Shown here: positions 41,960 to 64,000 of the stretch, in pieces
Layout: each line of letters starts with the position of its first letter
Numbering within the stretch: position 1 is the stretch's first letter
Assembly (NCBI GenBank): GCA_951406725.2
Contig: OX597818.1
Coordinates: 50,406,001 to 50,470,000, forward strand
Length of the DNA stretch: 64,000 nucleotides
DNA from: Octopus vulgaris
Taxonomy: Eukaryota
Direction: 5' to 3'
Translations under genes and position numbers: made by a program
The notes under the pieces: model-generated
Databases searched by the model: none
What the model was told of the DNA's origin: nothing
Seen by the model: the letters and a program-made list of their open reading frames with translations, nothing else

Positions 41960-42812
41960 GTAAGTAAAGTTTCTGTTCCGACCCCTGTTGTACTCTTTCG
42001 CCCAAACTTTCTCTCAGTCTTTCTTCCTGTTTCTTGAGCAACGCTGCGATGGACTGGCGTCCCGTCCAGCGCGGCGGGGGGGGGGGACACACATATGCCA
42101 TAGAAACCGGGAAACCGGGCCCATCAGCCTGGCTAGGCTTGAAAAGGGCGAGTACAAAATACAAAGAAAATAACAGTATTAATAAAGATAATTTCTAACA
42201 GGGACACAGGATAGAAATTTTAGGGCTGGATTAGAAGTGGATACAGTTGTTTACATATAGTAATATTTAGAGTCCCCAGAACAAAATAAATACAAACCAT
42301 ATCTCGGAGAGATTTGAATACAAAGCGTAAAGAAACGTAACTAAATTGTGTTGCTTTATTCGTTCAGTCAAAAAATCTATCTCTTATCCGTAATTCTTGT
42401 TTGAAGTTGACTACTCCAGCAGTTTGCTATTGGTTTACTCCAGAGACACAAGCATTATGAGTTAACAAAACACTCGTTAATTTACAGTACCTCTACTCTA
42501 CAACAACCAATTTTAAAAAATCCATGAAAGCTATTTATAGTGGACTGTAACAGCCAGAAGTAAGTGTATTCGTTATAAATACCACACACATATCAACATA
42601 GGTGTTGCCAGCCTTTCGCCTAATAATCCCGATGGGATCCCCTTTCACAATGGTTTAATATTTAAAATATTTTTCTGAAAGAAGAGCTGGGTGGTGTTTG
42701 GAATCTAAACGTAAATAAACGTACCTAAAACCCTCAAAATATTTTAACCGATGCCTTACACATCTTGCCGTTCACGTACCACTTAATGATATTCATTTGG
42801 TATTTCCTCCAG

Positions 42813-42906
42813 ACGAAACTCAACTCCAGATGATAAATTCGCCAGTTCAAATGTTCAAAATGTAAATGAGAACAATCATCCGTATGAAGAAATCGATGAA
42901 ACCACG
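42813..42906 (+). CDS. Cytoplasmic exon with YEEI motif (phase 2/0)
   Basis: tttcctccAG|...|GTTAGT; RNSTPDDKFASSNVQNVNENNHPYEEIDETT. Confidence 0.85.
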
Positions 42907-43197
42907 GTTAGTACTTACTCTCTTCCTCTCTCTCTCTAATGTGTGTAAGACTCTATTATCTGTTTCAGGTGGTAGGGTGTAGTTTGAAGAACGTTTAGTT
43001 ACCAAAATGATCAGACGGAACTTCACTTTAAACAATTGGCCCCTGTTTTATTACATCGAAAAAATAAAATACAATGTAGACCCAGGTGGGATTTGAACTC
43101 AAAACGTAAGGAGATATAACGAAATACTATAAGGTGACCGTTTCTACCATCCACTCATTCACACGGGTTTATATATTTTATTTTTATTTCATTACAG

Positions 43198-43377
43198 ACA
43201 ACTATTTCCTTCTGCAATAGTAGTATAGCGAATAAAAACACTTCAACAACAACAAACCCAAGAAACATCAGTGAGGAAACATATGAAGCCCTAGAAGAAG
43301 AGTCTTCTCCAAGATATGATAAACTGGCTTTTAACAAACTGGAAATTGTGAACAATGAGAACAGAAATAACTCTTAA
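43198..43377 (+). CDS. Terminal cytoplasmic exon with ITAM
   Basis: tttcattacAG|; TTISFCNSSIANKNTSTTTNPRNISEETYEALEEESSPRYDKLAFNKLEIVNNENRNNS*; AATAAA at about 43392. Confidence 0.82.
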   Translation, partial: TTISFCNSSIANKNTSTTTNPRNISEETYEALEEESSPRYDKLAFNKLEIVNNENRNNS

Positions 43378-43786
43378 TCCCGTCGTTGAAAAATAAAATC
43401 TACTGGTGATAACGATACGTTTTATAACTTAATAATTAATCAAAATCTGTTACAAGTAGCAATCTGTTACTGTTCGATAACCAAAACCTATGGATAGATG
43501 ATAACAATGCCTTGATGGTTTTCAATATAATATATCACGTGATACCATTATTGGAGTTATCTCACTTCCTTTTTGTTTTTAGATTTTTAAAATGTGAGAT
43601 TTCTTCCCTGAAGACGGGGAAATTGATTCCAACGTCAGATGAGACGAGCCCCCGTCTTCAAGGAAGAAATCCTATATTTGAGGTGTTGACAGAAGGGAGA
43701 TTAAAGGTGGAATTACGATGGAATACGACTTTTCTTCAACCCTTTAATTCTTGATATCATTTCTATTCTGTGTAAGTCGGACCTTT

Positions 43787-43850
<64 letters not shown>

Positions 43851-45331
43851 TAACACCTTGTTCAAGTGTCCTTTATCACAATTATAGACCGATCCAAGGC
43901 ACTGTAAATTAAATGGCATAGACGGGTAATCTCCATAAGATCGTCGGATGAGCTTTATCTGTTATGGAGTGGTAGACTAAATCTCGCTCATCGGTCCCTC
44001 ACCACCGCATGGTCCCTGATTGCTTTTAGCGAGGGATACCCTTTTGCAAAACATTATGTTACATTGAGATTAAACAGCAACAACTGGATTTACAGAATAA
44101 GAACTTAAATAAAACTTTATTTCTGAGAAAGATCTTTTTATTGTAGCCTCTCTTCATTGAATAACCTCCCCTCGGAAATGTTACTCTGATGCGTATTTAG
44201 TTGTTCAAAGTTATTTCCCATCTATAGGATTTATTTATCATTATCCTTTTAATCCAGATATTTATGTTCTTTTCACACATCTGATACGTATTGATCTCTT
44301 CCATGACGTTTTTTTTTTGTCTTTTTGTTAAATAAATTGAATAGCAAATGTGAATTGTAACTCATTGATTTCTAATATACGGCCAAAAATAAAGGGATAG
44401 TCGATTAAATCGTTCCAGAACTGTATTTAGTTTATTGACTCCTGACAGATGAACGACAAAGCCGATTTCGATGGTGGTACTTGAACTTAGAAAGCGAATT
44501 TAAGCAACTAAATATAGCTATACTATCGATTTTGCCAATCGTCCGTCCTTAATAATGTTAACAAATTATTTCAAAAACATGTAACATAAATGGGAGAACG
44601 TTTGAAGACAGCGCATTTTCCTTGAACAGAGAAACGGATCAGAATTCTTGCAGGAAAATAAACTTCGTTGACGGCAACTAAAAGCCGAAAAGTGGCGTTG
44701 ATATTATTATTTAGATTCAGACCAATACTAATCAATTATATCTAGGATGAACGATATTCCAGTCTTAATTATCTTACCTTTTCGTATAACCAGGGCTACA
44801 TATTCTAATCTTATGACTGTAGGATGCAATCAAGGTGCGAAATTCGATGCTTTCTTCCAGCAGAACAGCTTGTTCGGGCTACATCAGCACTAACAAAGAA
44901 AAAATATTGTAAACAAGTTGGCAAGACACACTTGAAACCAAATTTATATTCAACCAAGAAGAACTGTAAAATAAAATCAGGAAATGAAAATTTCTTATTC
45001 TAAAAATACTAGAAACAAAATCTGATGAATCTACGAAATGGTAATAAAATACAGAGAAAAATATATTCGAGATACACAAGAATATTGAATTCTACCAATT
45101 ACACATTGTCACTCATTTCAGAGATGGAACGTGGATCGATTCCAGTTCTTGACTGATACTACTTATTTTATCCACCTCGGAGGAACGTGTAGGAAATACG
45201 ATCGTATTTGGAGGTTGGCGACATAGGTAAGTCACACGGTCGTATCCCTAACGAAATAAGATTAGCCATAAATACAATTTATACAATGCAGTGCCAACAG
45301 AATATAGATGAAAGACGACAAGCCGTTCCAC

Positions 45332-46148
45332 TGTTTGAGAGAAGATAAGATTTTATTTACAAGGTGTTAAGATTAGAGGGTTGTGAGTGCTAGCAAGTGT
45401 TGTGTATGTGTGCATGCAACAAGTGTTTGTGTCTGTGTGTTCGTGTGTGTGACAGATACAAATAAGGGTGAATGCGTGTGACACAGAAAGTACAGAGCAT
45501 AGAGTTAATGATGGAGATTGGTTTACAGTTCATAAGGTACACGATATGTAAGAGTTCCATATAAAGATGTGTCTCGGGCAGAGACCGGTTGGCGAATATT
45601 GTCGAGCCGCGGCTGTGGTCTCAATCACCGAGCTGGTTCTCCTAATATAGAATTCTTCAGATGGACTGTTTTACTTGGTGAAGGGATTCATTCTATCAGC
45701 GTGAGTCTGTGAAGTTGGTGTATACATATCTAAAGTGGACGATGGTAGAGACGACTTGAAGTTGGTACAATAATGGTGACGACGGCGGCGGAGATAGAAG
45801 GCGTTCTGCGGTGCTGGTGTATGTTAGAGTCGTCGGTGGTTGTAGCAGGAGCAATCGTCTGTCGCTGGAACTGGAACATGTTGAGTAGCTCTGTGGTCAG
45901 TGACTAGACCTTAGAAGGTCAGGAGTCAAAGACCAAGTATACTGAGAAGAATCCTTTATACACAAGAAAGGTGGCTCAACAAAGCCTAGGAAAATTGGAC
46001 ATTAACCAAAGGCCGTGATTGGTTGGCTTTGGACAGAGACCAATCTCGCCATATGTCAACCAATCAGGTCAGTGGACACAACAGGAACAACTCAGCCAAA
46101 GATGGCTGTAATCTCAAACGAGATCATTCCTGCCGTGTCTCTCAAACA
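45332..46148 (-). mobile_element. Solo-LTR-like element (second copy at 59250-60082 on +)
   Basis: TGTTTGAGAGA...TCTCTCAAACA termini, TATAAA and a 3' AATAAA; no TSD seen. Confidence 0.55.
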
Positions 46149-46834
46149 GTGAGGATGTCAGATACCGCTACAAACGAAAATAAAGCTCATTTTGGCGAAA
46201 TTTGAACCCGGAAAGTAAAGAAAATACCAGAAAGTATTTTGCATGCAACTCTACAGATTCTACAATCAACCTAATTCAGTAATATTCCATATAAATACTT
46301 CTAAAATAATAGATAAATGCATCTAAAGTATTTCTAATGATTGACCATTTTTTTTACATACCAGCGGGAGACTAATTGTAAACTAACAATAATCGCGAGA
46401 AGAATAATTCTGTTATACGGTTCTCTGGTCTAATTGTGTAATTTTGCTCTAAAATGCCAAGAACAATCCTGGAAACAAGCATTATCTAGAAATTTTAAAA
46501 AAGTAAAATTTGGTTTTAAGAGCGGAACATTCTATACGATTGTAATCATTAAATAAATACCTTTCATCTAGTAACATCACGATTCCTGTTTTATTTTTAA
46601 TTGAGTTTCAATGAGTTATTCTATTTCATTTTGTCCCTTCTTCTGCACGTCAGTCTGATACTGTCACCATGAGTTGAACCGAACCAGCTACAGTTATTTC
46701 GATAAACGTTTCAACTTAGATCAGATATCATATTTATTTACTGCTATTTAAGCAATGTTGTTGATTTAGATACAAAGTTCAATGCTTACAGAGACCAAGA
46801 TTTTTATATAAATAAATATTCCACAAATATCCTT

Positions 46835-47372
46835 ACTTACTTGTACTTGTAACGGCGTTTACCCAGGGCGGGTTGAGCCGGCTTCTTCTCTGGTCCTGAC
46901 GGCTGCACGAACCACGCTCGACGGTCCTGTGCGAGGTCAATGGAGATAGCCAGCCATTCGCGGTTCCATCAGCGCAGACCGACCACCTGCGGACCTGAGA
47001 GTTCGGAGATATCCTCCTTTATCGTCGTTGCCCAGGTCTTCAGCTGCCGGCCCGTGCGTTTGCGCCAGTTGGGAAGTGGAGTTGGGAGGAGGACATCGCG
47101 AATCAGCTCACCTTCTGGACACCGGACCGCATGACCGAACCACCTTAAGCGCCGTTGTAGAAGCACCGAAGGGAGAAGCCGGAGATTCAGGCGATGACGA
47201 AGACCGGCTGTAGGAACCCGATCAATGCGTCGGCAGCGAAGATTGCGGCGGAGACAATCATTGTCGAACACCTCCAGCCTTCGCTGATCTATTCCCCTCA
47301 TAGGCCATGTTTCACAACTACAGAGGAGGATAGTACGACCGACAGCCTGATAGATTCGCCCTTTGGTCACTG
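46835..47372 (-). mobile_element. RTE-clade LINE 3' end
   Basis: RTILLCSCETWP...RRLEVFDNDCLRR...RRLRWFGH; (CAAGTA)n-like tail. Confidence 0.85.
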
Positions 47373-48429
47373 CGGAGATCTCTCTTCTGTCCTACAAGCA
47401 CAAAAATCCTACATAAATATGACTCAATAATTTGGCGGATCAGTTTTCAATTTAATCCGTTACATGACAAAAATATTGGAATATACATGACAAACACAGG
47501 ATAAGGCGTACAGGTCGCAACACAGCATCTCATTCTATTATTCACCACACCAGGTAATGATGCAGAGAATGATCTTCGTATGAATAGAACATCTTGAAGA
47601 TATACATCTTAGATATTTATGGCTCGCACCTAGTAGTTCGATCAACTACCCTCATAACATATCTCTGCTCGATTATATTTGAGGAATGACAGCACCACCA
47701 ATAGTCATACAAAATATAAAATGGACAGCATTGGGTACATGCCTAACCAGTCGGACTGCATGTCGTAATATGCAATTCTATTCAGTTAGGCTGTCAGTTA
47801 TGGTATATCTGGAACTACAAATCTGTAAATTGCACCTCGTCATTCGCGACTCGACTATTTCCGCACCAAATGACTTCTTGGTCATCATCAACTTGATGTT
47901 TGTCAACGAAAAAGCCCGTATATGATCAACTGAATTATCAGATATAACATCCAAATCAGCCCTAAATTACACTCTACCACCTCGAAAAAGAAAGGGCATA
48001 TTTTGAAATGTAAAGTGGCACAGAATTGTTCTTCGTTAAAAGCATATCCATTTAAATAAAGCACGATTACATTTCTCTTGGAAAGTTATTTTTCGTGTAA
48101 GAAAATAAAAATTGTTTTCCTAAGCGTTCATAACAGCCCGGTGTCAAGTGCATTATACGATAGACAGGCGTTAAATAGTAACAACATGATTCAATGGTGT
48201 GATTTAAAAGACATACATCCCATTCTGATATATTAAAGGAAGACACATGATTAAGTAAACATGAAAATAGTTTTATTTCATTGGGAAACTCTTATTGGAC
48301 ATAATATATTACTTTCCCACTTGATCTACAACATTAACTATTGAGTGTAAGCATGACTATTTCACAGAATTGCCTGCGATAGATGCTAGTTCATGCTGTG
48401 GGCCCAAGTGCTTTTCTTTTCTTTTCTTT

Positions 48430-48942
48430 TCTCTTTGCACTTTTTCCTTGTTGTAGTTTTTGTTTTGGTTTTTGTTGTTTTTTGCTGTTGGGCAATCACA
48501 TCTTAGGTGTTCCTCGCTGCCACACAAGTAACAACGATGCCTACTACCCTCTACCACCACGCAATGGTTATTGCCGTCGGGCTGCTCAATTTGGTGTGGA
48601 ATGCTATTGATTTGGTTTTGATCTATTTGCATCTATAACTGAATCATTTTCCCCGACCATTTCTCTTGCTCCAAGGCGGCAAATTCGAGATGTTTATGTT
48701 CTCCTCCATGTTGTAGCAAATGGCTAACAACAGCCATTGTGACTCTATTGCTGGAGGGACACTTTTTATCGAAAATTTTGTCAGACGTTGACCAAGGTAG
48801 GTCGGAATTAAAATCAGTTTTTCCGACTGTAAGGCGAGCGTCGAAAGTTCTTTCGCTTTTTCTTCGCTGTCGAAGCGAACCTGTACTGTGGCATATTTGT
48901 TCCACCAATTTACATGTTTTTTCCATGCCCATATCGGGCGTA

Positions 48943-48946
<4 letters not shown>
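48430..48946 (-). mobile_element. Tx1 ORF1 fragment, same family as 683-1205
   Basis: Shared translation MAVVSHLLQHGGEHK and CYLCGSEEHLRCDC. Confidence 0.88.
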
Positions 48947-48992
<46 letters not shown>

Positions 48993-49020
48993 AGAAAAAA
49001 GCAACAAAAATGGATCAATA

Positions 49021-49110
49021 TTTCGGTACAATTGTTTCGTACGAAGACCAGCTTTATTAAGACTGCAAATATTGCAGTAAATATAAGTGACCCGTACTCA
49101 TCAGCCGAAA
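49021..49110 (-). ncRNA. Type I hammerhead ribozyme (inverted copy of 50265-50354)
   Basis: Reverse complement of 50265-50354. Confidence 0.8.
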
Positions 49111-50264
49111 AAACATCTGAGTTCTCCAAACATCTAAGGGGGTGATGTTACACTCCTGAAACCTCAGGGATAGTTCTATAAAAATAAGATTTAGGTAACA
49201 AACGGACGTCTAAAAGTTCTTTAATGTTGCACAGTCATATAACAGGTTTTAAAAAAGTACTTTAAAAAACCTCTTAGTTTCCCAGAAAATGAAAATGTAA
49301 ATCCATCCATATTGAAGTAAGTTTAATTTCTGGAGATATGAGGAGAGATTTCATACTCACAGAAGATGCATTTATCCATAATTAGTCCATAATAAAGTGT
49401 GTTTCCTGATGTGTGATGATATACTGGTTACATTTCTGAGAATTTCTCAAAACTGCTATGTTAGAATTCTATTTGTTGAAGGAGAGTTAGCGGAGCGTAG
49501 AGACAATCACTCACATAGGGTATATTGGGGTAACTGAGAGTGGAAGGGGATGTAAATATCCAACTACGCAGAATAGTTTATTTCAGTGGAGACAAACTGA
49601 CTGATTCAGAATTTGCAAGAATCTAAGTGCTTTAAGGAGGAATGCTAATCTTGACCAGTATACCGTCGTTAATTGCTATATAAAGAGGATATGGGAAGGT
49701 AAAAGCGGGTCAAAGGTTATCACTATAGGAAAAAAAACATTAACAGATTTCAGTGCAACACTAGAAAGGAGGTCTAAAATGTTAATGTTACTACTTATAC
49801 ATTGGCAGACTTTGGGACTACATTTAGGGGTCAAAAGAAAGGATTGAGAGTATTGTTTTTCATAATGAAAAATCGTTATATTATTTTTATGGGATTAGCA
49901 ATATTTACTAGTAGTAAATAAAAGAATTACGAAATTAACTTATTTGCTTTAAGTTGGTTTACCTAAATTAGATTAAAAATTAGATAAAATTAATTATGGA
50001 TAAATGCATCTTCTGTGAGTATGAAATCTCTCCTCATATCTCCAGAAATCAAACTTACTTCAATATGGATGGATTTACATTTTCATTTTCTGGGAAACTA
50101 AGAGGTTTTTTAAAATACTTTTTAAAAACCTGTTATATGACTGTGCAACATTAAAGAACTTTTAGAAGTCCGTTTGTTACCTAAATCTTATTTTTATAGA
50201 ACTATCCCTGATGTTTCAGGAGTGTAACATCACCCCCTTAGATGTTTGGAGAACTCAGATGTTT

Positions 50265-50354
50265 TTTCGGCTGATGAGTACGGGTCACTTATATTTACTG
50301 CAATATTTGCAGTCTTAATAAAGCTGGTCTTCGTACGAAACAATTGTACCGAAA
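50265..50354 (+). ncRNA. Type I hammerhead ribozyme
   Basis: tttcgg-CTGATGA-gtacg...cgtac-GAAA-caattg-TA-ccgaaa; predicted cleavage after GUA (50348). Confidence 0.85.
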
Positions 50355-50584
50355 TATTGATCCATTTTTGTTGCTTTTTTCCTGTTTATAATCACCCCGC
50401 ATTATCTTATGGTTAATACCATATAGATTTCTGGTGCATCTAAGTTAAGTACCGCATTCATGTGAATTCAACAGAACTCACTTGAATCTTAATTGCTTTT
50501 ACCGGCGAGAAAAATAACTTTAACCTCAAAACCTGTAGAAATCCTCCGTCCAACCCAGCTCTTGCCAAGTTTGAACAGGACCTG

Positions 50585-52906
50585 ATGAAATTAATCAAAC
50601 GCCTGAAATTTTCAAAATACACCAATCCATTCCAGAAGATTCTATCTCAGAAGATTTCGTCTATGAAATCGTCTCCCGACCCACATGTATTGTCGGATAA
50701 AACTGGGAACATTTACTCTATACCACCAGATTTATATGATGAATTGATTTTAAAAGAACTTAAATCTGGCTATAAACATGCAGGTAAAAATGCTATAAAT
50801 AAGATTAATGCCAACCATTTGAAAATAATATCTGGTTTGGGCCTGCTTGATAGAACCCAACCTTATGATCCAAATACTCCCCATGCTTTATTGAAGGACC
50901 ATAAGCCTGACTTTCTATCTAATCCTTCGATTAGATTGATATGTCCGACAAAATCTGATTTGGGCAGAATCAGTAAATTCATTATCGATAGCATTATCCC
51001 AACTGTGAGGGATAAGGTCGAACTTCCCTTATGGAAAGGAACGGAGGATGTAATACTTTGGTTTAACTCTATCAGAGATAAACCTAAGCTCAGCTTTATA
51101 CAATTCGACATTTCGAATTACTATAGGTCTATAAGCCCTATTTTGCTAAACAAAGCCTTAATCTTCGCAAGAAGATTTGTTGAGATATCTAAGTCGGATT
51201 TAGAGGTAATTTTAACGGCAAGAGAAACACTTGTCTCCTATAATGAGAGTGAATGGCAAAGAGCCGACTCAGAAAATTTCTTTGATATTACCATGGGGTC
51301 ATCAGATTCTGCGCAGGTGACTGACTTGGTTGGCCTGTATCTACTCTCGGAAGCTAGGAAAAGCTTCCCTAACCTTACTGGTGGATTATATAGGGATGAT
51401 GCCCTCTTTGCCGTGCAGGGCCTCTCTAAGACCGAATTGAACAGATTAAAGAAGTCGTTGAGAAGCTTTTTGAAAGATTTTTTAAATCTTGATATCATCT
51501 ACGACAGTAACTCTAGGGTAGTAAACTTCTTGGACGTTACCTTGTGTCTTAATACCGGTCTATACTATCCCTTTCGTAAGACTAATAAATCGATAGCATA
51601 TATCAATGTGTCATCCAATCATCCGAAATCCACAATAGATAGTATCATAACTGCGATTTCAACTAGAATATCCAATTTATCTGCGAACGAAGAGATTTTT
51701 GAGCAACATGCACCAGTGTATAATAATGCCCTAAGTTTAAGTGGTTTCAAGTCTAAAATATTCTATATCCTTAATACTAGACTAAAAAACAGGATGGCTG
51801 GTTTGCCAATTGAGCAAGTTGCAATTACTACAGATAAATACAATAATAAATACTGTAATAATAATAAGTTTTTGAATAATAATTATAATAATAATAATAC
51901 GTCTAGGAATAATAAAAGGCCTTTAAATAATAATAATATGTTTAGGGATAACAGCAGTAAGGGTAGGTATAAGGAAATTAAAAATCCTGATAAGAAGTTA
52001 AACAAAACAGGAAGCTCACGGCCTAGAATAAGGGAAGTTATTTGGTTCGCTCCCCCTTTCTCCCTTAGAGTAAGGAATTTACCAAAACTATTTTTTAAGA
52101 TTCTGAAGGAGAACTTCCCAAAGGACCACAAATATTATAGCATCTGCAATAAGTCGACAATAAAATTCTCCTATTCTGTAATGCCTAACTTTGCTTCCAT
52201 CATTGCTTCAATCAATAGAAGCAAGCTTACTAGGTGGAACGACAGAAAAAGTTCCTTTGAGGATGACCAAGGAAATGTGGTTGATAATCCTGTAAAGCTG
52301 AGTACCAAAGCTATAAATGGTCTACCTTTACTGGACTCATCGAACCCATGTAATAAGGGTAGTTTAGAGGGAAGGAATGAGCGAAACCCGTCTGGAACTG
52401 GAGATAAAATAAGTAAAGATAATAATAGGAAAAAAATTAGGAAAGGCCCCGAAAAGACATGTAACTGTAGGAAACCCAAATTATGTCCTTTGGATGGTTC
52501 ATGTCTGGTTACCAACGTAATATATAAATGTGTAGTTAGGGATGTAGATAATCTAAACAAATTTTATATAGGTAGTACGATGGATTTTAAGGCGCGATAT
52601 AGGTCACACATGAGCTCTTTTACTAACGAAAAATACTTTAACTCAACTACACTTGCATCGCATATACACAACCTGAGAAAGAACAATAAGAATTATTTCC
52701 TAGAATGGTCCATCATTTCTAAAATCCCAAACTTTAAGAGAAATATCAGCAAGTGTAGGCTATGCATAAGGGAATCACTTACCATCCTTAGGTGTTATGG
52801 ACCGCACATTCTGAATAAATTTACGGACGTGATCCCCTTTTGCGTACATAAATTTTCTTCTACATTCCTGAAAATCTACAGGAATAAAATAAATTGTAGT
52901 AAGTAA
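50585..52906 (+). CDS. Penelope-like element RT + GIY-YIG endonuclease (Naiad/Chlamys-type)
   Basis: 773-aa ORF: SDKTGN, FIQFDISNYY, MGSSDSA, LYRDD, NFLDVTL, SNHP; linker CNCRKPKLCPLDGSC; VIYK...FYIGST..FKARY; CRLC...LN...CVH. Confidence 0.92.
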   Translation: MKLIKRLKFSKYTNPFQKILSQKISSMKSSPDPHVLSDKTGNIYSIPPDLYDELILKELKSGYKHAGKNAINKINANHLKIISGLGLLDRTQPYDPNTPHALLKDHKPDFLSNPSIRLICPTKSDLGRISKFIIDSIIPTVRDKVELPLWKGTEDVILWFNSIRDKPKLSFIQFDISNYYRSISPILLNKALIFARRFVEISKSDLEVILTARETLVSYNESEWQRADSENFFDITMGSSDSAQVTDLVGLYLLSEARKSFPNLTGGLYRDDALFAVQGLSKTELNRLKKSLRSFLKDFLNLDIIYDSNSRVVNFLDVTLCLNTGLYYPFRKTNKSIAYINVSSNHPKSTIDSIITAISTRISNLSANEEIFEQHAPVYNNALSLSGFKSKIFYILNTRLKNRMAGLPIEQVAITTDKYNNKYCNNNKFLNNNYNNNNTSRNNKRPLNNNNMFRDNSSKGRYKEIKNPDKKLNKTGSSRPRIREVIWFAPPFSLRVRNLPKLFFKILKENFPKDHKYYSICNKSTIKFSYSVMPNFASIIASINRSKLTRWNDRKSSFEDDQGNVVDNPVKLSTKAINGLPLLDSSNPCNKGSLEGRNERNPSGTGDKISKDNNRKKIRKGPEKTCNCRKPKLCPLDGSCLVTNVIYKCVVRDVDNLNKFYIGSTMDFKARYRSHMSSFTNEKYFNSTTLASHIHNLRKNNKNYFLEWSIISKIPNFKRNISKCRLCIRESLTILRCYGPHILNKFTDVIPFCVHKFSSTFLKIYRNKINCSK

Positions 52907-54009: not shown

Positions 54010-54410
54010 GTAGTCAACCGTCGATTTCGAAAGGCCATGGATCTCCAGCCGAAGAAATTGTGTCAGCTGCTGATGGTTGCTTAGCGTCTGCTGTGGCTGT
54101 AGCAGCTCGCACGAGAGTGACACTCACTCATACAGTGACTACATTTGAAGAAGCTCTCTGTCGGCGCTACTGTTTTTTTTTTTTCTTTCTGTCGAGTACG
54201 CTTTTCTTTGGAGGCGCTCCTCACTTCATCCACTTTCGCAGTATTTGTCTCCAGCCTGGGCGATCATTTGCTACCTCCTCCCATCTCAGATCAAGCGACT
54301 TCATATCTCTCTCGCAGACGTCCTTGAAACGAAGATGAGGTCGTCTTCGTGATCTTGTGTCGGTGGCCAATTCCCTATATAGGAGATCTTTTGATGTCCT
54401 GTCGTCCGAT
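54010..54410 (-). mobile_element. RTE-clade LINE 3' fragment
   Basis: KDLLYRELA...RPHLRFKDVCERDMK...WEEVANDRPGWR. Confidence 0.75.
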
Positions 54411-54554
54411 ACGTGTATGTATGTATGTATGTATGTATGTATGGAGGAATTTACGTTACTTTTACACAAATGCGCAAGCATCCATGTACACACACACACA
54501 CACACATGTTTTATTATTTTTTATATAAGTATATATTCATATCAAACTCTGTCA

Positions 54555-54885
54555 CTGACAAATACAAACGTCAGTCAACATCAACACTTCTTTTTACGAC
54601 TCCTCACCATGATGGGCAGAACACAAGTTCTCTGCAAAATCTTCGATTAAAACTTATGAAGGATTGCCACACTCTTAGACAGACATGTTTTATACTTGGA
54701 CTACCGAAAAATGATGCCCAGTAATACAAACGTCAGTTAACATAAGCACTTCTTTTTATGACACCTCTACAAAAAGATCAGAGCACAAGCTCTCAGCAAG
54801 ATCTTCGAATAAAACTGATGAAGGCTCGCCACACTTAGAGATAGAAATATTTTATACTTGGACTACTGAAGAATGATACCCTGTA
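54555..54885. repeat. Diverged tandem duplication of an about 163-bp unit
   Basis: AATACAAACGTCAGT at about 54561 and 54723. Confidence 0.75.
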
Positions 54886-55244
54886 AATCTGATGCCAGCA
54901 ACATAATAGTTTCTGTATTTCAAACAAGTGTTGAGCGTTCTTTCCCGTTTGCTGTTAAAACGCTGTAAGCGATTCAGTCTGACAAATAACATGATGAACT
55001 TGAAGGTTTCAAGCATCTAAAAATATTTATGGTGACATTGAAATAGATTTACGTAGATGAAATTATAATGCAGTCCTCATTGACAAAAGAATATAAATAC
55101 CAAGAACATCAAACATATGGCCTTTCTCAACCTAACCACACTGAAGTTAATAATGTAGAACAGAAATTTTAAAAGACGTATCACATTATATTTACAAACC
55201 CCAATTTACTGCCAACACGAGGAAAGCTTATTCTATTTTTCATA

Positions 55245-55641
55245 AATCTCTCTATATATAAAGCTGAGGTTGTCTGTCTATGGCAGGTTTGGCAGCCTTC
55301 AACTAACACTATCTCCTCCGAGACCCTGCGGCGCAAGTTGACCAAAATTGAGAGTATGATAGAAGAAGGCTTGTTCTTCATTCCGTAGAAGAAAAAAATT
55401 CAAATCGGATCATGTTAAGACCAAAAATTATTTAAATCAAAAAGGTGCTTCTTTTTCTATGAAAATCCTTATTTTTTACGATTTTTTGACTGCTGTGTCG
55501 CCATTTTTCGGTGTATTTTAACCAGAAAAATGTTCACTTAAAGAGAATAACAAGCTATATAATGCAAAATTTTTACTTTTCAAAAATTTCAATTCTAAAG
55601 GGTCGAAACAAACCCGAGCAACGCCGGGCGATACTGCTAGT
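55245..55641 (-). mobile_element. Helitron-like non-autonomous element
   Basis: Reverse complement of 18626-19001. Confidence 0.7.
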
Positions 55642-56544
55642 TTCAGTAAAGTGGTGCTGGAGTTTATTTTATCGACAGAACTGGAAAGGCATTCCTAATT
55701 TTGTAGACATTTTCTGAATATTTGTCAACACAAAGGACTGACTATTGCAGCTGCTTCTTCGGGTATTGCTGCCATACTCATCCCTTGGATGGGGGTCACG
55801 CAGTAGATTCTGTTCTCAAAATCCTCTTTGTGTTGGACACAAATGGCACATATTTTTGAGGTAATATCGATAGTATTTCTCAACATGCAACATCTTTAGC
55901 TAACAAAAAAGTGGCTGTACGATAAAAGAAAAAGAAAAGCACTTGGGCCCACAGCATGAACTAACATCTATCGCAGGCAATTCCGTGAAATAGTCATGCC
56001 TACACTCAATAGTTAATGTTGTAGATCAAGTGGGAAAGTAATATATTATGTCCAATAAGGGTTTCCCAATGAAATAAAACTGTTTTCATGTTTACTTAAT
56101 CATGTGTCTTCCTTTAATATATCAGAATGGGATGTATGTCTTTTAAATCACACCATTGAATCATGTTGTTACTATTTAACGCCTGTCTATCGTATAATGC
56201 ACTTGACACCGGGCTGTTATGAACGCATAGGAAAACAACTTTTATTTTCTTACACGAAAAACAACTTTCCAAGAGAAATGTAATCGTGCTTTATTTAAAT
56301 GGATATGCTTTTAACGAAGAACAATTCTGTGCCACTTTACATTTCAAAATATGCCCTTTCTTTTTCGATGTGGTAGAGTGTAATTTAGGGCTGATTTGGA
56401 TGTTATATCTGATAATTCAGTTGATCATATACGGGCTTTTTCGTTGACAAACATCAAGTTGATGATGACCAAGAAGTCATTTGGTGCGGAAATAGTCGAG
56501 TCGCGAATGACGAGGTGCAATTTACAGATTTGTAGTTCCAGATA

Positions 56545-57595
56545 TCATCATCATCATTGATCGACCGAGGTCGAGACAATGGAATTTACCATGCTACGCC
56601 AGATTTCACGGTCCATCATCGCATTACGTAGGTCCTGTTGCTGGATGCCTGTATCTCTGGAGATTACATCAGGGTAGGAGAGTGTGCGCCCTCTGGTATC
56701 CCGAGCAGATGGCTTCCAGAGGAGAAGAGTAGAAATTGTCTCATTTTCAGCTCTACAACAATGTCCAGCAAACTGGACTCTCCAACCCTTCACAAGAGAT
56801 GACACAGGTGGTAGTTTCCCATATATTTGCATCTTGGTTGGATGACGCTTCCACCAGAGATTTTGAGCTCTCATAAGGAGGCAAGTATAGGTTCCATCCA
56901 ACCGCCTCTCAAGCTTCTTTGATAACGTCCAGGTTTCTGAGCCATATAGTAGAATTGGTTCGACTGTGGCTTTGAAGATTTCAAGTTTGAAGTCTCTACT
57001 TAGATTTGATGACCAGATCTTATGCATGTCATTACAGGCTGACCAGGCCATACCCTTTCTAGTTAGAAAATCTTTTCCAGATGATGATATGTATGACCCA
57101 AGATATTTGTAATCAGAAACCATATTTAAGGGCGCATTGTTGAGAGTATAGATGACGCAATCACTGTTGGACAGGCACTTGTTTATATATTCAGTCTTGG
57201 CCTCATTGAGGTTAAGACCTACACAATTTGAGGCTTGTTCGAGAGATTGTAAAAGAGACTGGGCATTGGAGAGAGAATCACTGATAAGAGCGATGTCGTC
57301 AGCAAAGTCAGTGCCTGTCAAGTATTCAGCTGGGTGTCTGGAACTTCTTGGTTTTATTTCAAAGCCCTTGCCAGAGATGGTATCAACGACATACGTAGCA
57401 CATAGTCACCGACAACGATGAAAAGAAATGGGGCGAGCGTGTCTCCCTGCAGTATTCTGGCTTTGATTGAGAAAGATGATGTTTCTCCGTCAGGGGTTAA
57501 GATGGTTGAAGACGTATCTGTGTAGAGGACCTTGATGGCAGAAATGATTTTGTCTGGTATCCCATAGAGCTGAAGGATTTCAAACATCTTGTACC
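56545..57595 (-). mobile_element. 5'-truncated RTE-like LINE present only in the right arm
   Basis: ILQGDTLAPFLF, DFADDIAL, YKYLGS, ILLYGSETW; (TGA)n tail; empty site at about 47800. Confidence 0.9.
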
Positions 57596-58019
57596 TAACT
57601 GACAGCCTAACTGAATAGAATTGCATATTACGACATGCAGTCCGACTGGTTAGGCATGCACCCAATGCTGTCCATTTCATATTTTTGTATGACTATTGGT
57701 GATGCTGTCATTCCTCAAATATAATCGAGCAGAGATATGTTATGAGGGTAGTTGATCGAACGATTGGGTGCGAGCCATAAATATTTAAGATGTATATCTT
57801 CAAGATGTTCTATTCATACGAAGATCATTCTCTGCATCATTACCTGGTGTGGTGAATAATAGAATGAGATGCTGTGTTGCGACCTGTACGCCTTATCCTG
57901 TGTTTCTCATGTATATTCCAATATTTTTGTCATGTAACGGATTAAATTGAAAACTGATCCGCCAAATTATTGAGTCATATTTATGTAGGATTTTTGTGCT
58001 TGTAGGACAGAAGAGAGAT

Positions 58020-58565
58020 CTCCTCGGAGACCAAAGGGCGAATCTATAAGGCCGTCGTTCGTACTATCCTCCTCTGTAGTTGTGAAACATGGCCTATGAG
58101 GGGAATCGATCAGCGAAGGCTGGAGGTGTTCGACAATGACTGTCTCCGCCGCATTCTTCGCTGCCGACGCATCGATCAGGTTCCTACAGCCGGTCTGCGT
58201 CATCGCCTGAATTTCCAGCTTCTCCCTTCGGTGCTTCTACAACGGCGCTTAAGGTGGTTCGGTCATGCGGCCCGGCGTCCAGAGGGTGAGCTGATTCGCG
58301 ATGTCTTCCTCCCAACTTCACTTCCCAATTGGCGCAAACGCACGGGCCGGCAGCTGAAGACCTGGGCAACGACGATAAAGGAGGACCTCTCCGAACTCTC
58401 AGGTCCGCAGGTTGTCGGTCTGCGCTGATGGAACCGCGAGTGGCTCGCTATCTCCATTGACCTCGCACAGGACCGTCGAGCGTGGTTCGTGCAGCCGTCA
58501 GGACCAGAGAAGAAGCCGGCTCAACCCGCCCTGGGTAAACGCCGTTACAAGTACAAGTAAGTAAG
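58020..58565 (+). mobile_element. RTE-clade LINE 3' end (duplicate of 46835-47372)
   Basis: Reverse complement copy. Confidence 0.85.
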
Positions 58566-61500
58566 GATATTTGTGGAATATTTATTTATATAAAAATCTC
58601 GGTCTCTGTAAACATTTATCTTTGTATCTAAATCAACAACATTATTTAAATAGCAGTAAATAAATATGATATCTGATCTAAGTTGAAACATTTATCGAAA
58701 TAACTGTAGCTGGTTCGGTTCAACTCATGGTGACAGTATCAGACTGACGGGCAGAGGAAGGGACAAAATGAAATAAAATAACTCATTGAAACTCAATTAA
58801 AAATAAAACAGGAATCGTGATGTTACTAGATGAAAGGTATTTATTTAATGATTACAATCGTATAGAATGTTCCGCTCTTAAAACCAAATTTTACTTTTTT
58901 AAAATTTCTAGATAATGCTTGTTTCCAGGATTGTTCTTGGCATTTTAGAGCAAAATTACACAATTAGACCAGAGAACCGTGTAACAGAATTATTCTTCTC
59001 ACGATTATTGTTAGTTTACAATTAGTCTCCAGCTGGTATGTAAAAAAAATGGTCAATCATTAGAAATACTTTAGATGCATTTATCTATTATTTTAGAAGT
59101 ATTTATATGGAATATTACTGAATTAGGTTGATTGTAGAATCTGTAGAGTTGCATGCAAAATACTTTCTGGTATTTTCTTTACTTTCCGGGTTCAATTTTC
59201 GCCAAAATGAGCTTTGCTTTTCGTTTGTAGCGGTATCTGACATCCTCACTGTTTGAGAGACACGGCAGGAATGATCTCGTTTGAGATTACAGCCATCTTT
59301 GGCTGAGTTGTTCCTGTTGTGTCCACTGACCTGATTGGTTGACATGTGGCGCGATTTGTCTCTACTTATTTCGCGCCACTGTCCAAAGACAACCAATCAC
59401 GGCCTTTGGTTAAGGTCCATTTTTCCTAGGCTCTGTTGAGCCACCTTTCTTGTATATAAAGGATTGTTCTCAGTATACTTGGTCTTTGACTCCTGACCTT
59501 CTAAGGTCTAGTCACTGACCACAGAGCTACTCAACATGTTCCAGTTCCAGCGACAGACGATTGCTCCTGCTACAACCAGCGACGACTCTAACATACACCA
59601 GCACCGCAGAACGCCTTCTATCTCCGCCGCCGTCGTCACCATCATTGTACCAACTTCAAGTCGTCTCTACCATCGTCCACTTTAGATATGTACACACCAA
59701 CTTCACAGACTCACGCTGTTAGAGTGAATCCCTTCACCAAGTAAAACAGTCCATCTGAAGAATTCTATATTAGGAGAACCTGCTCGGTGATTGAGACTAC
59801 AACCGCGGCTCGACGATATTCGCCAACCGGTCTCCGCCCGAGACACATCTTGATATGGAACTCTTACATATCGTGTACCTTATGGACTGTAAACCAATCT
59901 CCATCATTAACTCTATGCTCTGTACTTTCTGTGTCACACGCATTCACCCTTATTTGTATCTGTCACACACACGAACACACAGACACAAACACTTGTTGCA
60001 TGCACACATACACAACACTTGCTAGCACTCACAACCCTCTAACCTTAACACCTTGTAAATAAAATCTTATCTTCTCTCAAACAGTGGAACGGCTTGTCGT
60101 CTTTCATCTATATTCTGTTGGCACTGCATTGTATAAATTGTATTTATGGCTTATCTTATTTCGTTAGGGATACGACCGTGTGACTTACCTATGTCGCCAA
60201 CCTCCAAATACGATCGTATTTCCTACACGTTCCTCCGAGGTGGATAAAATAAGTAGTATCAGTCAAGAACTGGAATCGATCCACGTTCCATCTCTGAAAT
60301 GAGTGACAATATGTCATTGGTAGAATCCAGTATTCTTGTGTATCTCGAATATATTTTTCTCTGTATTTTGTTACCATTTCGTAGATTCATCAGATTTTGT
60401 TTCTAGTATTTTTAGAATAAGAAATTTTCATTTCCTGATTTTATTTTACAGTTCTTCTTGGTTGAATATAAATTTGGTTTCAAGTGTGTCTTGCCAACAT
60501 GTAACTGTTTACAATATTTTTTCTTTGTTAGTGCTGATGTAGCCCGAACAAGCTGTTCTGCTGGAAGAAAGCACCGAATTTCGCACCTTGATTGCATCCT
60601 ACAGTCATAAGATTAGAATATGTAGCCCTGGTTATACGAAAAGGTAAGATAATTAAGACTGGGATATCGTTCATCCTAGATATAATTGATTAGTATTGGT
60701 CTGAATCTAAATAATAATATCAACGCCACTTTTCGGCTTTTAGTTGCCGTCAACGAAGTTTATTTTCCTGCAAGAATTCTGATCCGTTTCTCTGTTCAAG
60801 GAAAATGCGCTGTCTTCAAACGTTCTCCCATTTATGTTACATGTTTTTTAAATAATTTGTTAACATTATTAAGGACGGACGATTGGCAAAATCGATAGTA
60901 TAGCTATATTTAGTTGCTTAAATTCGCTTTCTAAGTTCAAGTACCACCATCGAAATCGGCTTTGTCGTTCATCTGTCAGGAGTCAATAAACTAAATACAG
61001 TTCTGGAACGATTTAATCGACTATCCCTTTACCCAAAATCTTTGGCCGTATATTAGAAATCAATGAGTTACAATTCACAATTGCTATTCAATTTATTTAA
61101 CAAAAAGACAAAAAAAAAAACGTCATGGAAGAGATCAATACGTATCAGATGTGTGAAAAGAACATAAATATCTGGATTAAAAGGATAATGATAAATAAAT
61201 CCTATAGATGGGAAATAACTTTGAACAACTTAATACGCATCAGAGTAACATTTCCGAGGGGAGGTTATTCAATGAAGGGAGGCTACAATAAAAAGCTCTT
61301 TCTCAGAAATAAACTTTTATTTAAGTTCTTATTCTGTAAATCCAGTTGTTGCTGTTTAATCTCAATGCAACATAATGTTTTGCAAAAGGGTATCCCTCGC
61401 TAAAAGCAATCAGGGACCATGTGGTGGTGAGGGACCGATTGGCGGGATTAAGTCTACCAGTCCATAACAGATAAAGCTCATCCGACGATCTTATGGAGAT

Positions 61501-61591
61501 TACCCGTCTATGCCATTTAATTTACAACGCCTTGGATCGGTCTGTAATTGTGATAAAGGACACTTGAACAAGGTGTTACATTGTATATATG

Positions 61592-61625
<34 letters not shown>

Positions 61626-62023
61626 CATATAAAAATGTCCGACTTACACAGAATAGAAATGATATCAAGAATTAAAGGGTTGAAGAAAAGTCGTATTCCA
61701 TCGTAATTCCACCTTTAATCTCCCTTCTGTCAACACCTCAAATATAGGATTTCTTCCCTGAAGACGGGGGCTCGTCTCATCTGACGTTGGAATCAATTTC
61801 CCCCGTCTGCAGGGAAGAAATCTCACATTTTTAAAATCTGAAAACAAAAAGGAAGTGAGATAACTCCAATAATGGTATCACGTGATATATTATATTGAAA
61901 ACCATCAAGGCATTGTTATCATCTATCCATAGGTTTTGGTTATCGAACAGTAACAGATTGCTACTTGTAACAGATTTTGATTAATTATTAAGTTATAAAA
62001 CGTATCGTTATCACCAGTAGATT

Positions 62024-62221
62024 TTATTTTTCAACGACGTGATAAGAGTTATTTCTGTTCTCATTGTTCACAATTTCCAGTTCGTTAAAAGCCAGTTTAT
62101 CATATCTTGGAGAAGACTCTTCTTCTAGGACTTCATATGTTTCCTCACCGATGTTTCTTGGGTTTGTTGTTGTTGCAGTGTTTTTATTCACTATACTACT
62201 ATTGCAGAAGGAAATAGTTGT
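62024..62221 (-). CDS. Terminal ITAM exon of the paralogous receptor
   Basis: TTISFCNSSIVNKNTATTTNPRNIGEETYEVLEEESSPRYDKLAFNELEIVNNENRNNSYHVVEK*. Confidence 0.8.
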   Translation of the reverse strand, partial: TTISFCNSSIVNKNTATTTNPRNIGEETYEVLEEESSPRYDKLAFNELEIVNNENRNNSYHVVEK

Positions 62222-63619
62222 CTGTAATAAAATAAAAATAAAATATATAAACCCGTGTGAATGAGTGGATGGTAGAATCGGTCACCTTATAGTATTTCGT
62301 TATATCTCCTTACGTTTTGAGTTCAAATCCCACCTAGGTTTACATTGTATTTTATTTTTTCGATGTAATAAAACAGGGGCCAATTGTTTAAAGTGAAGTT
62401 CCGTCTGATCATTTTGGTAACTAAACGTTCTTCAAACTACACCCTACCACCTGAATCAGATAATAGAGTCTTACACGCACTATCTTTCAAAAGATATGAC
62501 GTTCTCTGCTGGAATGCATTTGTTTATAGATTTTCTCCAGTTGGACAGACCTGGAACAGCAACAACAACAATAAATTCAATACCACCACTGGCAATCTCA
62601 CACAAACCTCACCAAACGAAAGATGCATTAATGGCAATAGTTTTGACAAAATAGCTTCCAACATCAGCTTGAAATATGGACAGAACAGTCCTAAACCGTT
62701 GAGTTGTTTTCAGGAACAGGTGAAAAGAAACTGATCTACCTTCGTCTGTTGAAGGTACGAAAGCATTCTCTTTGCTCTAGGTGGACCAATTAAGGGGCGT
62801 TTTGATATTTTGTTTTCAGTGAAGGGCTGCGGGGACACAATCGATGGAAATGCGAAATGAGAGATTTTGCGCGAAAACATCCGCTTGTAAGCTTGTTATA
62901 TAAACTTATATTTCATTGCCCCAACAAAGTATATGAAGCGGGGAAATAAATGTGCGACAGTCAGAGGCACAGGAAATAATACTACCTATCCCTAGCTCAT
63001 TTTATCGAGATGTAGCCGTGTGTGGTGGGGTCAGTATAGAGTTGCTAATCCTTACGACCTTCCACGGAAGCTGTGCTACGTTGAAAGAGTAAAAACGAAG
63101 GGCGTGAGACTAATAAGGGAGGGAAGAAAGTTAAGTTGTTATACCTGAAGTCATATGATGCACCTGAAGACTTTTTGTTGTTCGGAAGAGATGGAGAAAC
63201 AGAATCAGTTCTCTACAATTAATTATTATAGTCGAGGTTATAATACTACTACCAGTGAGAAAATGTGAACTGGTGACCTTTCCACCGATTGCTTTGCACT
63301 TTACTTCCATTGTCATTCGTACTCTACGAAGCAATGTACTTTATTTCTCAAACGATACTGTCTTTTCGTTTCAGTCTAATTTCCCCCCACAAGTCTTTGG
63401 TCGACTGAAGGCTATGGTAGAATAGACTTACCCCAGGTGCCGTGCAGTGTGGTCGCCCAATATTTTGTGAAAAACTCAAATAACAAAATATAACTTAAGC
63501 ATGTATAAAAAAAAAGACGGAAAGAGAGTGAGAGGAGGAGGAGAAAAGAGAGGAGGAAAGAGTGTGAGGGAGAGAGAGTGTGTGTGTGATAGAGAGAGAG
63601 GAAGAGAGTAAGTACTAAC

Positions 63620-63713
63620 CGTGGTTTCATCGATTTCTTCATACGGATGATTGTTCTCATTTACATTTTGAACATTTGAACTGGCGAATTTATCATCTGG
63701 AGTTGAGTTTCGT
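63620..63713 (-). CDS. YEEI exon of the paralogous receptor
   Basis: Identical to 42813-42906, with intact AG and GTTAGT sites. Confidence 0.82.
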
Positions 63714-64000
63714 CTGGAGGAAATACCAAATGAATATCATTAAGTGGTACGTGAACGGCAAGATGTGTAAGGCATCGGTTAAAATATTTTGAGAGATTTA
63801 GGTACGTTCATTTACGTTTAGATTCCAAACACCACCCAGTTCTTCTTTCAGAAAAATATTTTAAATATTAAACCAGTGTGAATGGGGATCCCAACGGGAT
63901 TATTAGGCGAAAGGCTGGCAACACCTATGTTGATATGTGTGTGGTATTTATAAAGGAAACACTTACTTCTGGCTGTCACAGTCCACTATAAATAGCTTTC

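Follow-up and report, generated by a model that had tools for sequence, protein, structure and literature searches.

A large inverted duplication in Octopus vulgaris carries one complete spliced gene on each arm. We put a probability of roughly 60% on the overall explanation, in which the arms hold a duplicated gene belonging to a four-gene octopus cluster of predicted single-pass receptors whose tails have been subject to gene conversion. The window is the whole 64,000-nucleotide stretch that was analyzed. Positions beyond 64000 continue the same numbering in an extended window, where position c corresponds to C5:50406000+c. The features are collected in Table 1.

Arms, spacer, and genes of the inverted duplication

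The preliminary description of this DNA reported that about 5.9 kb (42526-48425) recurs in reverse complement around a 7.5-kb spacer and runs past the window edge. The repeat was recovered by reverse-strand self-BLAST as three matches, pairing 42526-42935 with 64000-63591 (97.3%), 42937-47805 with 62482-57592 (96.7%), and 47805-48425 with 56545-55924 (98.4%). The arms do pass the edge, and the duplication is real and bigger than first described: collinear unique sequence in reverse complement extends to ~27 kb on the left and ~38 kb on the right rather than to about 5.9 kb. Substitutions are scattered over the part inside 42526-48425 (142 of 5889 aligned bases, 2.4%), and arm-specific indels are present as reported, with two stretches found in arm B and not in arm A. 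The 1.1-kb stretch at 62483-63590 is partly common to paralog D, so that A has likely lost sequence here, as opposed to B having gained it. The spacer holds mobile elements, as had been claimed. The element with terminal inverted repeats is likely a non-autonomous DNA transposon, and the 806-codon frame, for which a Pfam search gave no hit, is one that we take to be Penelope-like from its motifs.

Table 1. Positions of the arms, spacer elements, exons, paralogs, and inferred exchange tract
Feature	Position	Strand	Basis
Left arm, carries gene A	21444..48425	+	sequence self-comparison
Right arm, in-window part; extends to 93551, carries gene B	55924..64000	-	sequence self-comparison
Spacer between arms, 7.5 kb	48426-55923		self-BLAST
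Spacer: dispersed-retroelement fragment, pyrimidine-rich end adjoins inner end of arm A	48424..48947	-	
Spacer: 1.4-kb element, 400-bp terminal inverted repeats (98%)	48985..50390	.	
Spacer: 806-codon open frame, RT-like and GIY-YIG-like motifs; copies elsewhere at 97-98%	50486..52903	+	
B-only 1.05-kb LINE-type RT fragment	56546..57592	-	RVT_1 E 8.8e-6
Intron segment in B, partly common to D, missing from A; last 142 nt also in C	62483..63590	-	
Region upstream of A, mirrored at 96-97% upstream of C (second, head-to-head palindrome)	13446..21817	+	
Gene A coding exon 1, Met-Gly-Lys, phase 1	22384..22393	+	
Gene A Cys-rich exon 1, 17.5% different from B	31304..31417	+	
Gene A Cys exon 2, joined to TM exon in contigs	34690..34767	+	
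Gene A TM exon: membrane-proximal Cys segment, Thr/Pro stalk (21-bp repeat), TM helix, basic stop-transfer residues	41710..41959	+	
Gene A YEEI exon	42813..42906	+	GT..AG joint 41959-42813 in 4/4 runs
Gene A last coding exon, YEAL-x7-YDKL (ITAM core)	43198..43377	+	
Gene B last coding exon, YEVL-x7-YDKL	62024..62221	-	
Gene B YEEI exon, sequence identical to that of A	63620..63713	-	
Gene B TM exon	64565-64808 (extended)	-	
Gene B Cys exons	71749-71874 and 76148-76273 (extended)	-	
Gene B coding exon 1	92589-92598 (extended)	-	
Paralog C, before window	C5:50381323-50395186	-	
Paralog D, before window	C5:50347422-50368182	-	
Inferred conversion tract (A coordinates): A, B, and C equidistant (3.2-3.3%), C D-like on both flanks	41897..43340	+	

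Genes A and B are each complete and consist of six exons. The YEEI and ITAM exons that had been seen on both arms are indeed there, with 0/94 and 5/179 differences, respectively. The preliminary description would have given up the receptor pair if transmembrane (TM) and ectodomain exons were absent beyond 64000; the TM exon, the Cys exons, and coding exon 1 of gene B were all found there. The cluster order is D(-) C(-) A(+) B(-), with C and D upstream of the A/B pair, and the four paralogs differ by 2.4-4.0% in alignable blocks, mostly non-coding. These results support the earlier view of a young receptor cluster in palindromic layout. The spliced sequences of A, B, and D exactly reproduce the database proteins P0001, P0003, and P0009. 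The stop codon of gene B is displaced by a 1-nt deletion, which adds six residues. Paralog C contains a frameshift in the O. vulgaris genome, is broken at two places, and may be decaying.

Splicing of the 3'-exons was observed in public contigs from four RNA-like runs of three studies, in which the RNA nature is presumed and transcripts of A and B are indistinguishable. The TM-to-YEEI joint (GT..AG) was found in contigs of all four runs and the Cys2-to-TM joint in three; the YEEI-to-ITAM joint was found in two of the four in the A/B form and in three of the four in the C form. An in-frame stop lies 14 codons upstream of the Met of gene A, and a signal peptide is absent. The hydrophobic frame at 22160-22378 was rejected as a signal-peptide exon because it contains no in-frame Met; the adjacent frame that does have an ATG stops in A, and the ATG is missing in B, C, and D. 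A GT-flanked segment at ~42487-42558 contains a stop, and the TM-YEEI joint passes over it.

Predicted proteins and a distant parent gene

The predicted protein starts without a signal peptide. Its outer part is short and Cys-rich and is followed by a Thr stalk, a single TM helix, and a tail bearing YEEI and YxxL-x7-YxxL motifs. The four ectodomains of the cluster contain 8-12 cysteines, with about 100-140 residues before the TM helix. A single hydrophobic segment was predicted in 11 of 11 proteins, with a net charge of +3 to +7 after it versus -2 to +2 before it. From this charge bias and the Thr stalk we infer an N-out topology with the tail inside, and the same features disfavor the type II alternative, in which the Met-Gly start would be myristoylated. 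Three points go beyond the preliminary description: the topology lacking a signal peptide, the rapid evolution of the ectodomain, and the parent gene without an ITAM.

The ITAM core consensus used here is D/E-x2-YxxL/I-x6-8-YxxL/I in a cytosolic tail. It is matched by the tails of A, B, and D and not by those of C or the parent gene; the earlier term ITAM receptor holds as a motif match in A, B, and D and not as demonstrated signaling. The core was found in 9 of 14 tails, compared with 0.08-0.35% among shuffles of those tails. A lacks the additional acidic residue that the long consensus places upstream. C has a broken ITAM in both species, as does one isoform of O. bimaculoides. Inspection of the listed tyrosines by eye showed two YxN (Grb2-type) motifs and no ITIM in the C tail.

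Among the best 25 of 33 Pfam families for 11 cluster proteins, there were only sub-cut-off TM-type hits, and PF01607 was not among them. A PDB sequence search gave only three TM-helix matches (E 3.7-9.6), the matches of the VIA wide search were all to the TM helix, and the Atlas search with the D ectodomain gave no usable hit. The AlphaFold model of A, with a pLDDT of 41.5, was unusable. The TNFR members BCMA and TACI are also signal-peptide-free; unlike these, the octopus proteins gave no TNFR Cys-repeat match in Pfam or the fold search, and TNFR-like repeats found no support in the PDB sequence search either.

A distant parent gene on the same chromosome shares the intron phases 1,1,2,0 with the cluster and has no ITAM, and the second ITAM tyrosine would have been gained after the split from this gene. 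The Pfam family PF01607 was listed for one of six proteins, the parent P0014, at 13.7 bits (E 0.071; curated cut-off 22.1). Using the parent as query, the Atlas search placed CBM14 as the top three at 0.78-0.79, and Foldseek ranked EHEP, Der p 23, and EHEP first to third (E 0.79-0.96, below threshold). CBM14-fold entries in Foldseek stood at ranks 1-3, 11, and 12 (E 0.79-2.2). The parent model has three strands at a pLDDT of about 56-63; the mean of the whole model is 43. These signals come mainly from the parent and are all sub-threshold. When a CBM14 profile (25 rows, one of them, L030, mistranslated) was applied to the window's own genes, the signal was gone, with 200/500 and 382/500 shuffles scoring equally well. 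The ectodomain may descend from the peritrophin-A/CBM14 fold. Over ~30-36 residues, the parent ectodomain bears a weak likeness to the N-terminal half of this domain, which is found in EHEP, Der p 23, and chitotriosidase. The match is sub-cut-off, the C-terminal part is unmatched, and the window genes give no signal; unlike in those proteins, the octopus ectodomain is combined with a TM helix and a tail of tyrosine motifs. The searches found relatives solely in octopods. A match to a fish protein (P0015, E 1.9e-6) covers the stalk/TM region only and was excluded from all counts, and an additional genomic match, at C5:9.27 Mb, did not recur.

Divergence of ectodomains and tails

Between sister species, the ectodomain of D differs at 22 of 96 residues and the tail at 0 of 98 (Fisher P 5e-8); the corresponding values for C are 26/93 and 1/63 (Fisher P 6e-6), the sinensis C/D proteins being isoforms of a single annotated locus. 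A and B differ at 25/97 ectodomain and 5/90 tail residues. The ectodomain part of the TM exon differs at 9/93 nt versus 2/300 in the preceding intron. The contrast is weak between A orthologs (15/98 versus 6/90, P 0.07) and absent between B orthologs (2/71 versus 4/88), for which the sinensis model lacks Cys exon 1. For the A-B ectodomain, pN was 0.137 and pS 0.060, the latter resting on 3 synonymous changes, and all 5 A-B tail changes are nonsynonymous. The pairwise dN/dS comparisons (A-B, A-D, and A-C) give no demonstration of positive selection.

The divergence could instead reflect relaxed constraint, the genes being ligand-free transmembrane adaptors (LAT/NTAL-like scaffolds) or decaying duplicates in which the ectodomain drifts and conversion follows passively from nearby repeats. 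The near-unity pN/pS of A-D and A-C, in ectodomain and tail alike, fits this reading, as do the fading of the CBM14 likeness from parent to A/B and the two breaks in C. The proteins also resemble the TRAPs (LAT, NTAL, and PAG) in their predicted N-out placement without a signal peptide, their enzyme-free tails with tyrosine motifs only, and the two YxN motifs of C. However, TRAP ectodomains are of a few residues in the part of the source considered (PMC3342071), whereas all four octopus ectodomains are far larger (~100 residues), variable, retain their cysteines, and have no juxtamembrane CxxC. In addition, the ectodomain changes of D beside an unchanged tail, and the exon-limited divergence peaks (10-17%, with the long intron at 2.5%), are greater than neutral divergence in this region. 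We consider relaxed constraint unlikely on balance.

Real receptors might also act through the same kinases outside immunity, in cell-cell or self/non-self recognition or in cuticle or chemical sensing, which is quite improbable. Receptors engaged in host-pathogen conflict typically combine fast species-specific ectodomain turnover with ITAM tails that stay conserved. The reported mollusc Syk functions are immune in the portion of the source at hand (PMC13344425). In favor of a non-immune role, the nearest fold leads (EHEP and Der p 23) are without chitin binding, EHEP binds tannins, and chitin binding is described as not universal among CBM14 members in the relevant sections of that paper (PMC10619976).

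Exchange between copies and the proposed receptor family

Paralog C is of mosaic ancestry. C differs from D at 11/303 positions to the left of the tract, 301/1411 inside, and 1/115 to the right, and from A at 138/304, 47/1442, and 32/118, respectively. The A/B-like tract in C is 1.4 kb long, is bounded on both sides by switched ancestry, and includes introns, as expected of gene conversion. Within it, C switches between A and B blockwise (14 runs in 44 sites, P = 0.004), and the YEEI-ITAM intron of C is A-type at nt 1-139 and B-type at nt 138-540. At the Cys exon sites of C and D, 10 group by species, 0 by locus, and 1 otherwise. The inner tails were likely copied between neighboring genes, and the arm-to-arm conversion that had been offered as a possibility now has sequence evidence in the form of exchange between copies, clearest in C. 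For a reciprocal A/B tail swap across species there is a weak hint only: the tails of vulgaris B and sinensis A differ at 1/90 residues, but the tree signal involves two linked residues and the C-termini do not swap. In vertebrate paired-receptor clusters (Siglec, LILR, and KIR), adjacent and partly inverted paralogs swap tracts, and conversion usually equalizes ectodomains across opposite tails. In the octopus cluster, by contrast, conversion is seen in both directions and the receptor chain itself carries the ITAM; inspection by eye of the copy without an ITAM, C, gave no ITIM-bearing partner.

In O. sinensis there are two separate loci, LOC115211668 (A-like) and LOC115211728 (B-like), compared at the protein level only, and vulgaris A groups with sinensis A in the ectodomain tree at a support of 99/98. 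Although an arm divergence of 2.4% might be allelic in a heterozygous marine invertebrate, an assembly echo in which A and B are two haplotypes of a single locus joined inverted is very improbable, since A-like and B-like loci are separate in O. sinensis, one C intron combines A-type and B-type sequence, there are no N gaps in 264 kb, and the 7.5-kb spacer is not repeated as a block.

In the explanation favored here, a head-to-head A-type/D-type pair predating O. bimaculoides would be the ancestor, and later duplications would have produced B from A in inverted orientation and C from D in tandem. The small Cys-rich outer domain is predicted to bind a fast-changing ligand, which would cluster the receptors. 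A Src-type kinase may then be recruited to the YEEI-plus-ITAM tail and phosphorylate its tyrosines, and a Syk-type kinase may dock on the ITAM, in a presumed immune role. Gene conversion between the mirrored copies likely keeps the tails similar and transfers them among ectodomains. Because fast-diverging outer parts occur together with an immune-type activation motif and tails that were likely copied, the cluster is likely a family of recognition receptors that arose within the octopus lineage. A more far-reaching version is possible but rather doubtful: octopus ITAM immunoreceptors would have been built from scratch from a peritrophin-A-derived membrane protein lacking a signal peptide by addition of a second tail tyrosine, with nested palindromes shuffling the modules, new ligand-binding exons sweeping through the copies of a species, and signaling tails being traded, while C would have lost its second YxxL twice, separately in each of two species, to become a Grb2-type or dampening counterpart.

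The tail of the oyster CgIgR, likewise a membrane receptor from a mollusc, also carries an ITAM, and this receptor is reported to bind and signal through CgSyk (PMC6994640, as excerpted). Unlike CgIgR, which has five Ig domains, the octopus family has a Cys-rich ectodomain of ~100 residues, no signal peptide, no above-cut-off Pfam match, and no Ig match seen. The Botryllus fester/FcoR receptors are also lineage-restricted invertebrate receptors with tyrosine motifs, and their diversification by intergenic recombination is reported; they differ in having >37 loci, ITIM/hemITAM co-receptors, and a role in allorecognition, compared with four octopus loci and full ITAM cores (PMC11507803, in the sections consulted). 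Amphioxus VCBPs are polymorphic immune-type genes with chitin-binding modules, and unlike the octopus family they have Ig-like V domains, a TM-ITAM tail not being described in the corresponding part of that source (PMC13428168).

Six locus ids were not found in the literature, where supplements might carry other ids, and no such family is described in the octopus ITAM papers listed, as judged by title and abstract start. Octopus immunity is termed poorly understood in the abstract of a 2026 paper (PMC13230822). Palindromic duplication with conversion is already well known as a genomic mechanism. The present locus offers an unusually clear record of exchange between inverted paralogs, including a two-template junction within one intron, and the parent gene, which shares its chromosome and has no ITAM, gives a reference point for the origin of the ITAM. 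The cluster provides concrete receptor candidates, with an architecture not met elsewhere in the searches run.

The Inverted Duplication and Its Gene Cluster

The inverted duplication with receptor genes is real, and the interpretation offered in the preliminary description is supported. By self-BLAST, the arms form three blocks of 96.7–98.4% identity in the window, flanking the 7.5-kb spacer that had been described as transposon-filled, and its three elements are listed in the table. The arms were also said to be about 5.9 kb long and to run past the window edge; the second statement holds for arm B, and the first was too short by far once the flanks were included. The part originally described has 142 substitutions over 5889 aligned bases, and several segments are found only in arm B (the largest 6.5, 1.5, 1.1, and 1.05 kb). 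The arm alignment is poor at about 23.5–26 kb, and there are no N gaps within 264 kb (window plus flanks).

Genome searches with the TM exon and with the ITAM exon each returned four places, every one inside the cluster D(−) C(−) A(+) B(−). The upstream regions of A and C are mirrored (130/5492 differences), and A is thus in a head-to-head palindrome with C in addition to its tail-to-tail palindrome with B.

The 806-codon spacer frame, which we take to be Penelope-like from its motifs, gave no match in Pfam. None of the near-identical copies returned by the genome search matches over a longer unbroken stretch than this frame itself, and the family is young.

Table. Features of the cluster in extended window numbering (window C5:50406001–50470000; c = C5:50406000+c, with 100 kb of flank added per side; genome of 2.8 Gb)
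Feature	Position	Strand	Remarks
Gene D	−58578 to −37818	minus	genome search
Gene C	−24677 to −10814	minus	genome search
Gene A		plus	genome search
Gene B		minus	genome search
Arm A	21444–48425
Arm B	55924–93551
Retroelement fragment			7.5-kb spacer
Element with 400-bp TIR			7.5-kb spacer
Open frame, presumably Penelope-like	50486–52903		7.5-kb spacer; 97–98% copies elsewhere in genome
Degraded LINE	682–5696		ORF1-like, endonuclease, and RT frames; in spacer separating C and A arms; related fragment adjoins inner end of arm A
(TACA)n array	7014–8323		1.3 kb, 328 copies
Broken transposase frames	19033–19936		upstream of gene A; HTH matches; presumably Tc1/mariner-like
Run identical in arms A and B	32013–32692		679 bp, longest in arms; next is 247 bp
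Stalk gap	41818–41861		42 nt, in frame, in 21-bp stalk repeat
B-only intron segment (L001–L002)	77300–82540		inside arm B; 6.5 kb of nested ~500-bp direct and inverted repeats, 97–98%

Gene Products and Their Predicted Cytosolic Tails

Genes A, B, and D spliced at AG/GT boundaries reproduce the database proteins P0001, P0003, and P0009 exactly. In contigs of the four RNA-like runs, which cover the stretch beyond exons 1–2, the TM-to-YEEI joint was found in 4/4 runs, the Cys2-to-TM joint in 3/4, and the YEEI-to-ITAM joint in 2/4 (A/B form) and 3/4 (C form). Stalk length is variable: the stalk gap occurs in contigs of two of the four runs and also in P0004/P0005, and the stalk of P0002 is 14 residues longer. 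The Cys exon of C/D is joined straight to the YEEI exon, with the TM exon skipped, in contigs of 2/4 runs (loose ends, 42808), and O. bimaculoides isoform X3 (P0012) starts in a shifted frame matching this skip; a recurrent TM-less, possibly tail-only isoform may exist.

Met-Gly-Lys opens the proteins, and in gene A a stop lies in frame 14 codons before it. The N-terminus is not hydrophobic, and a single TM helix is followed by basic residues, from which we infer an N-out receptor without a signal peptide. In the tails, YEEI (a ligand of Src SH2 domains) is accompanied by D/E-x2-YxxL-x7-YxxL; the latter is present in 9 of 14 tails (a count that leaves out P0012, P0013, and the fish protein P0015) and in 0.08–0.35% of shuffles of those tails.

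The tail of C has lost the YEEI tyrosine and contains YENT and YENL, both YxN, described as a Grb2 motif (PMC3342071). In O. vulgaris a stop eliminates its second YxxL, whose loss in P0011 of O. sinensis is due to a frameshift, and a contig of run X10 has a one-base deletion at that codon. The database model of C starts at an internal Met. This tail may have been repeatedly rewired; decay of C is as likely, because its Cys exon carries an extra base in this genome.

The Parent Gene and Likeness to CBM14

When 1.84 billion representatives were searched with a profile, seven matches resulted, six from octopods and one from a fish that aligns in the stalk/TM only; word-based protein searches found octopod proteins only. 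Two matches, P0014 of O. bimaculoides and P0016 of Argonauta, define a parent gene, uncharacterised according to database labels, that the genome search placed at one site in O. vulgaris (C5:128349900–128361850, L021 and L022, at C5:128.35 Mb). Its intron phases (1,1,2,0) are those of the cluster. Since the parent tail has YEEV/YEEI and retains its first tyrosine but lacks an ITAM, the ITAM was likely gained in the cluster lineage; loss of the ITAM in the parent is also conceivable. Motifs conserved in the parent tail are YEE[VI], YQRI, SIYIP, and GQYN[IV].

The parent ectodomain weakly resembles Pfam CBM14 (E 0.071, below the score cut-off), and in the Atlas CBM14 scores 0.78–0.79, the level of a lead. 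With an octopus CBM14 profile, 6/500 shuffles of P0014 and 2/500 of P0016 scored as high, compared with 0/500 for P0013 (a D-type O. bimaculoides exon) and 142–382 of 500 for six other cluster proteins tested. Foldseek ranked EHEP, Der p 23, and EHEP first to third for the parent ectodomain model (rmsd 1.6–2.5 Å over 31–36 columns), none at E ≤ 0.001; both are described as having the CBM14 fold but no chitin binding (PMC10619976). CBM14 ancestry of the ectodomain is reasonably probable, and chitin is an improbable ligand of A/B. The octopus family falls below the CBM14 cut-off and differs from TRAP in its ectodomain, and it is classed with neither. Dense CBM14 exon arrays lie at C6:121.7–122.0 Mb, C6:105.4–105.5 Mb, C9:59.85–60.08 Mb, and C5:90.2 Mb of the assembly, among 130 matches.

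Exchange between Copies and the Proposed Mechanism

A and B are most likely not a haplotype echo of one locus, since the A-like and B-like proteins of O. sinensis have separate locus ids (C-like and D-like share a third) and the A proteins of O. vulgaris and O. sinensis are joined at 99/98 in the tree of the membrane-proximal ectodomain.

In a four-way alignment of A, B, C, and D, gene C is a chimera. Its differences from D amount to 11/303 sites on the left side of the TM helix, 301/1411 over 41897–43340, and 1/115 at 43660–43780; those from A are, in the same order, 138/304, 47/1442, and 32/118. Over 41897–43340, A, B, and C all lie at equal distances from one another, and the likeness of C switches between A and B block by block (14 runs over 44 sites, P = 0.004). 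The 540-nt YEEI-ITAM intron of C carries the deletion junction of A within nt 1–139, after which the sequence starts again as B-type, including 142 nt absent from A, and thus both templates were likely used. Conversion had been envisaged as a possibility between the arms; exchange is clearest in C and would be either conversion or double crossover, indistinguishable here. Of the informative residues in the C/D Cys exon, 10 unite copies from one species, 0 unite copies of one locus, and 1 supports another grouping, unlike the tail tree, where C and D each pair with their counterpart from the other species. The 679-bp identical run is a candidate for a very recent conversion tract.

Between the sister species, D differs at 22/96 ectodomain residues and 0/98 tail residues, and C at 26/93 and 1/63; the contrast is not clear for A (15/98 vs 6/90) or B (2/71, partial, vs 4/88). 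Of the three ectodomain exon parts, two form peaks of divergence between A and B (20/114 and 9/93 nt), and Cys exon 2 has only 3/78; the long intron has 160/6295 differences, and divergence is elevated (5–7%) in the introns flanking Cys exon 1 as well. The A-B ectodomains differ by 33 replacement and 3 silent changes (NG86 pN 0.137, pS 0.060), and pN/pS is near 1 for A-D and A-C; these counts are no proof of positive selection.

In the most likely mechanism, each step of which we infer, a ligand would cluster the receptor through its Cys domain, a Src kinase would dock on YEEI and then phosphorylate the ITAM, and Syk or Shark would bind the phosphorylated ITAM. The model for this last step is oyster CgIgR, reported to signal with CgSyk (PMC6994640); mollusc Syk is also treated in PMC13344425. 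The literature searched, with few subscription papers and supplements outside its scope, held no description of the locus ids or of cephalopod ITAM receptors; further related work is in PMC11507803, PMC13428168, and PMC13230822. The palindromes would provide templates that equalize or swap modules, and the octopus family is predicted to function as ITAM receptors do, within a cluster whose copies undergo conversion.
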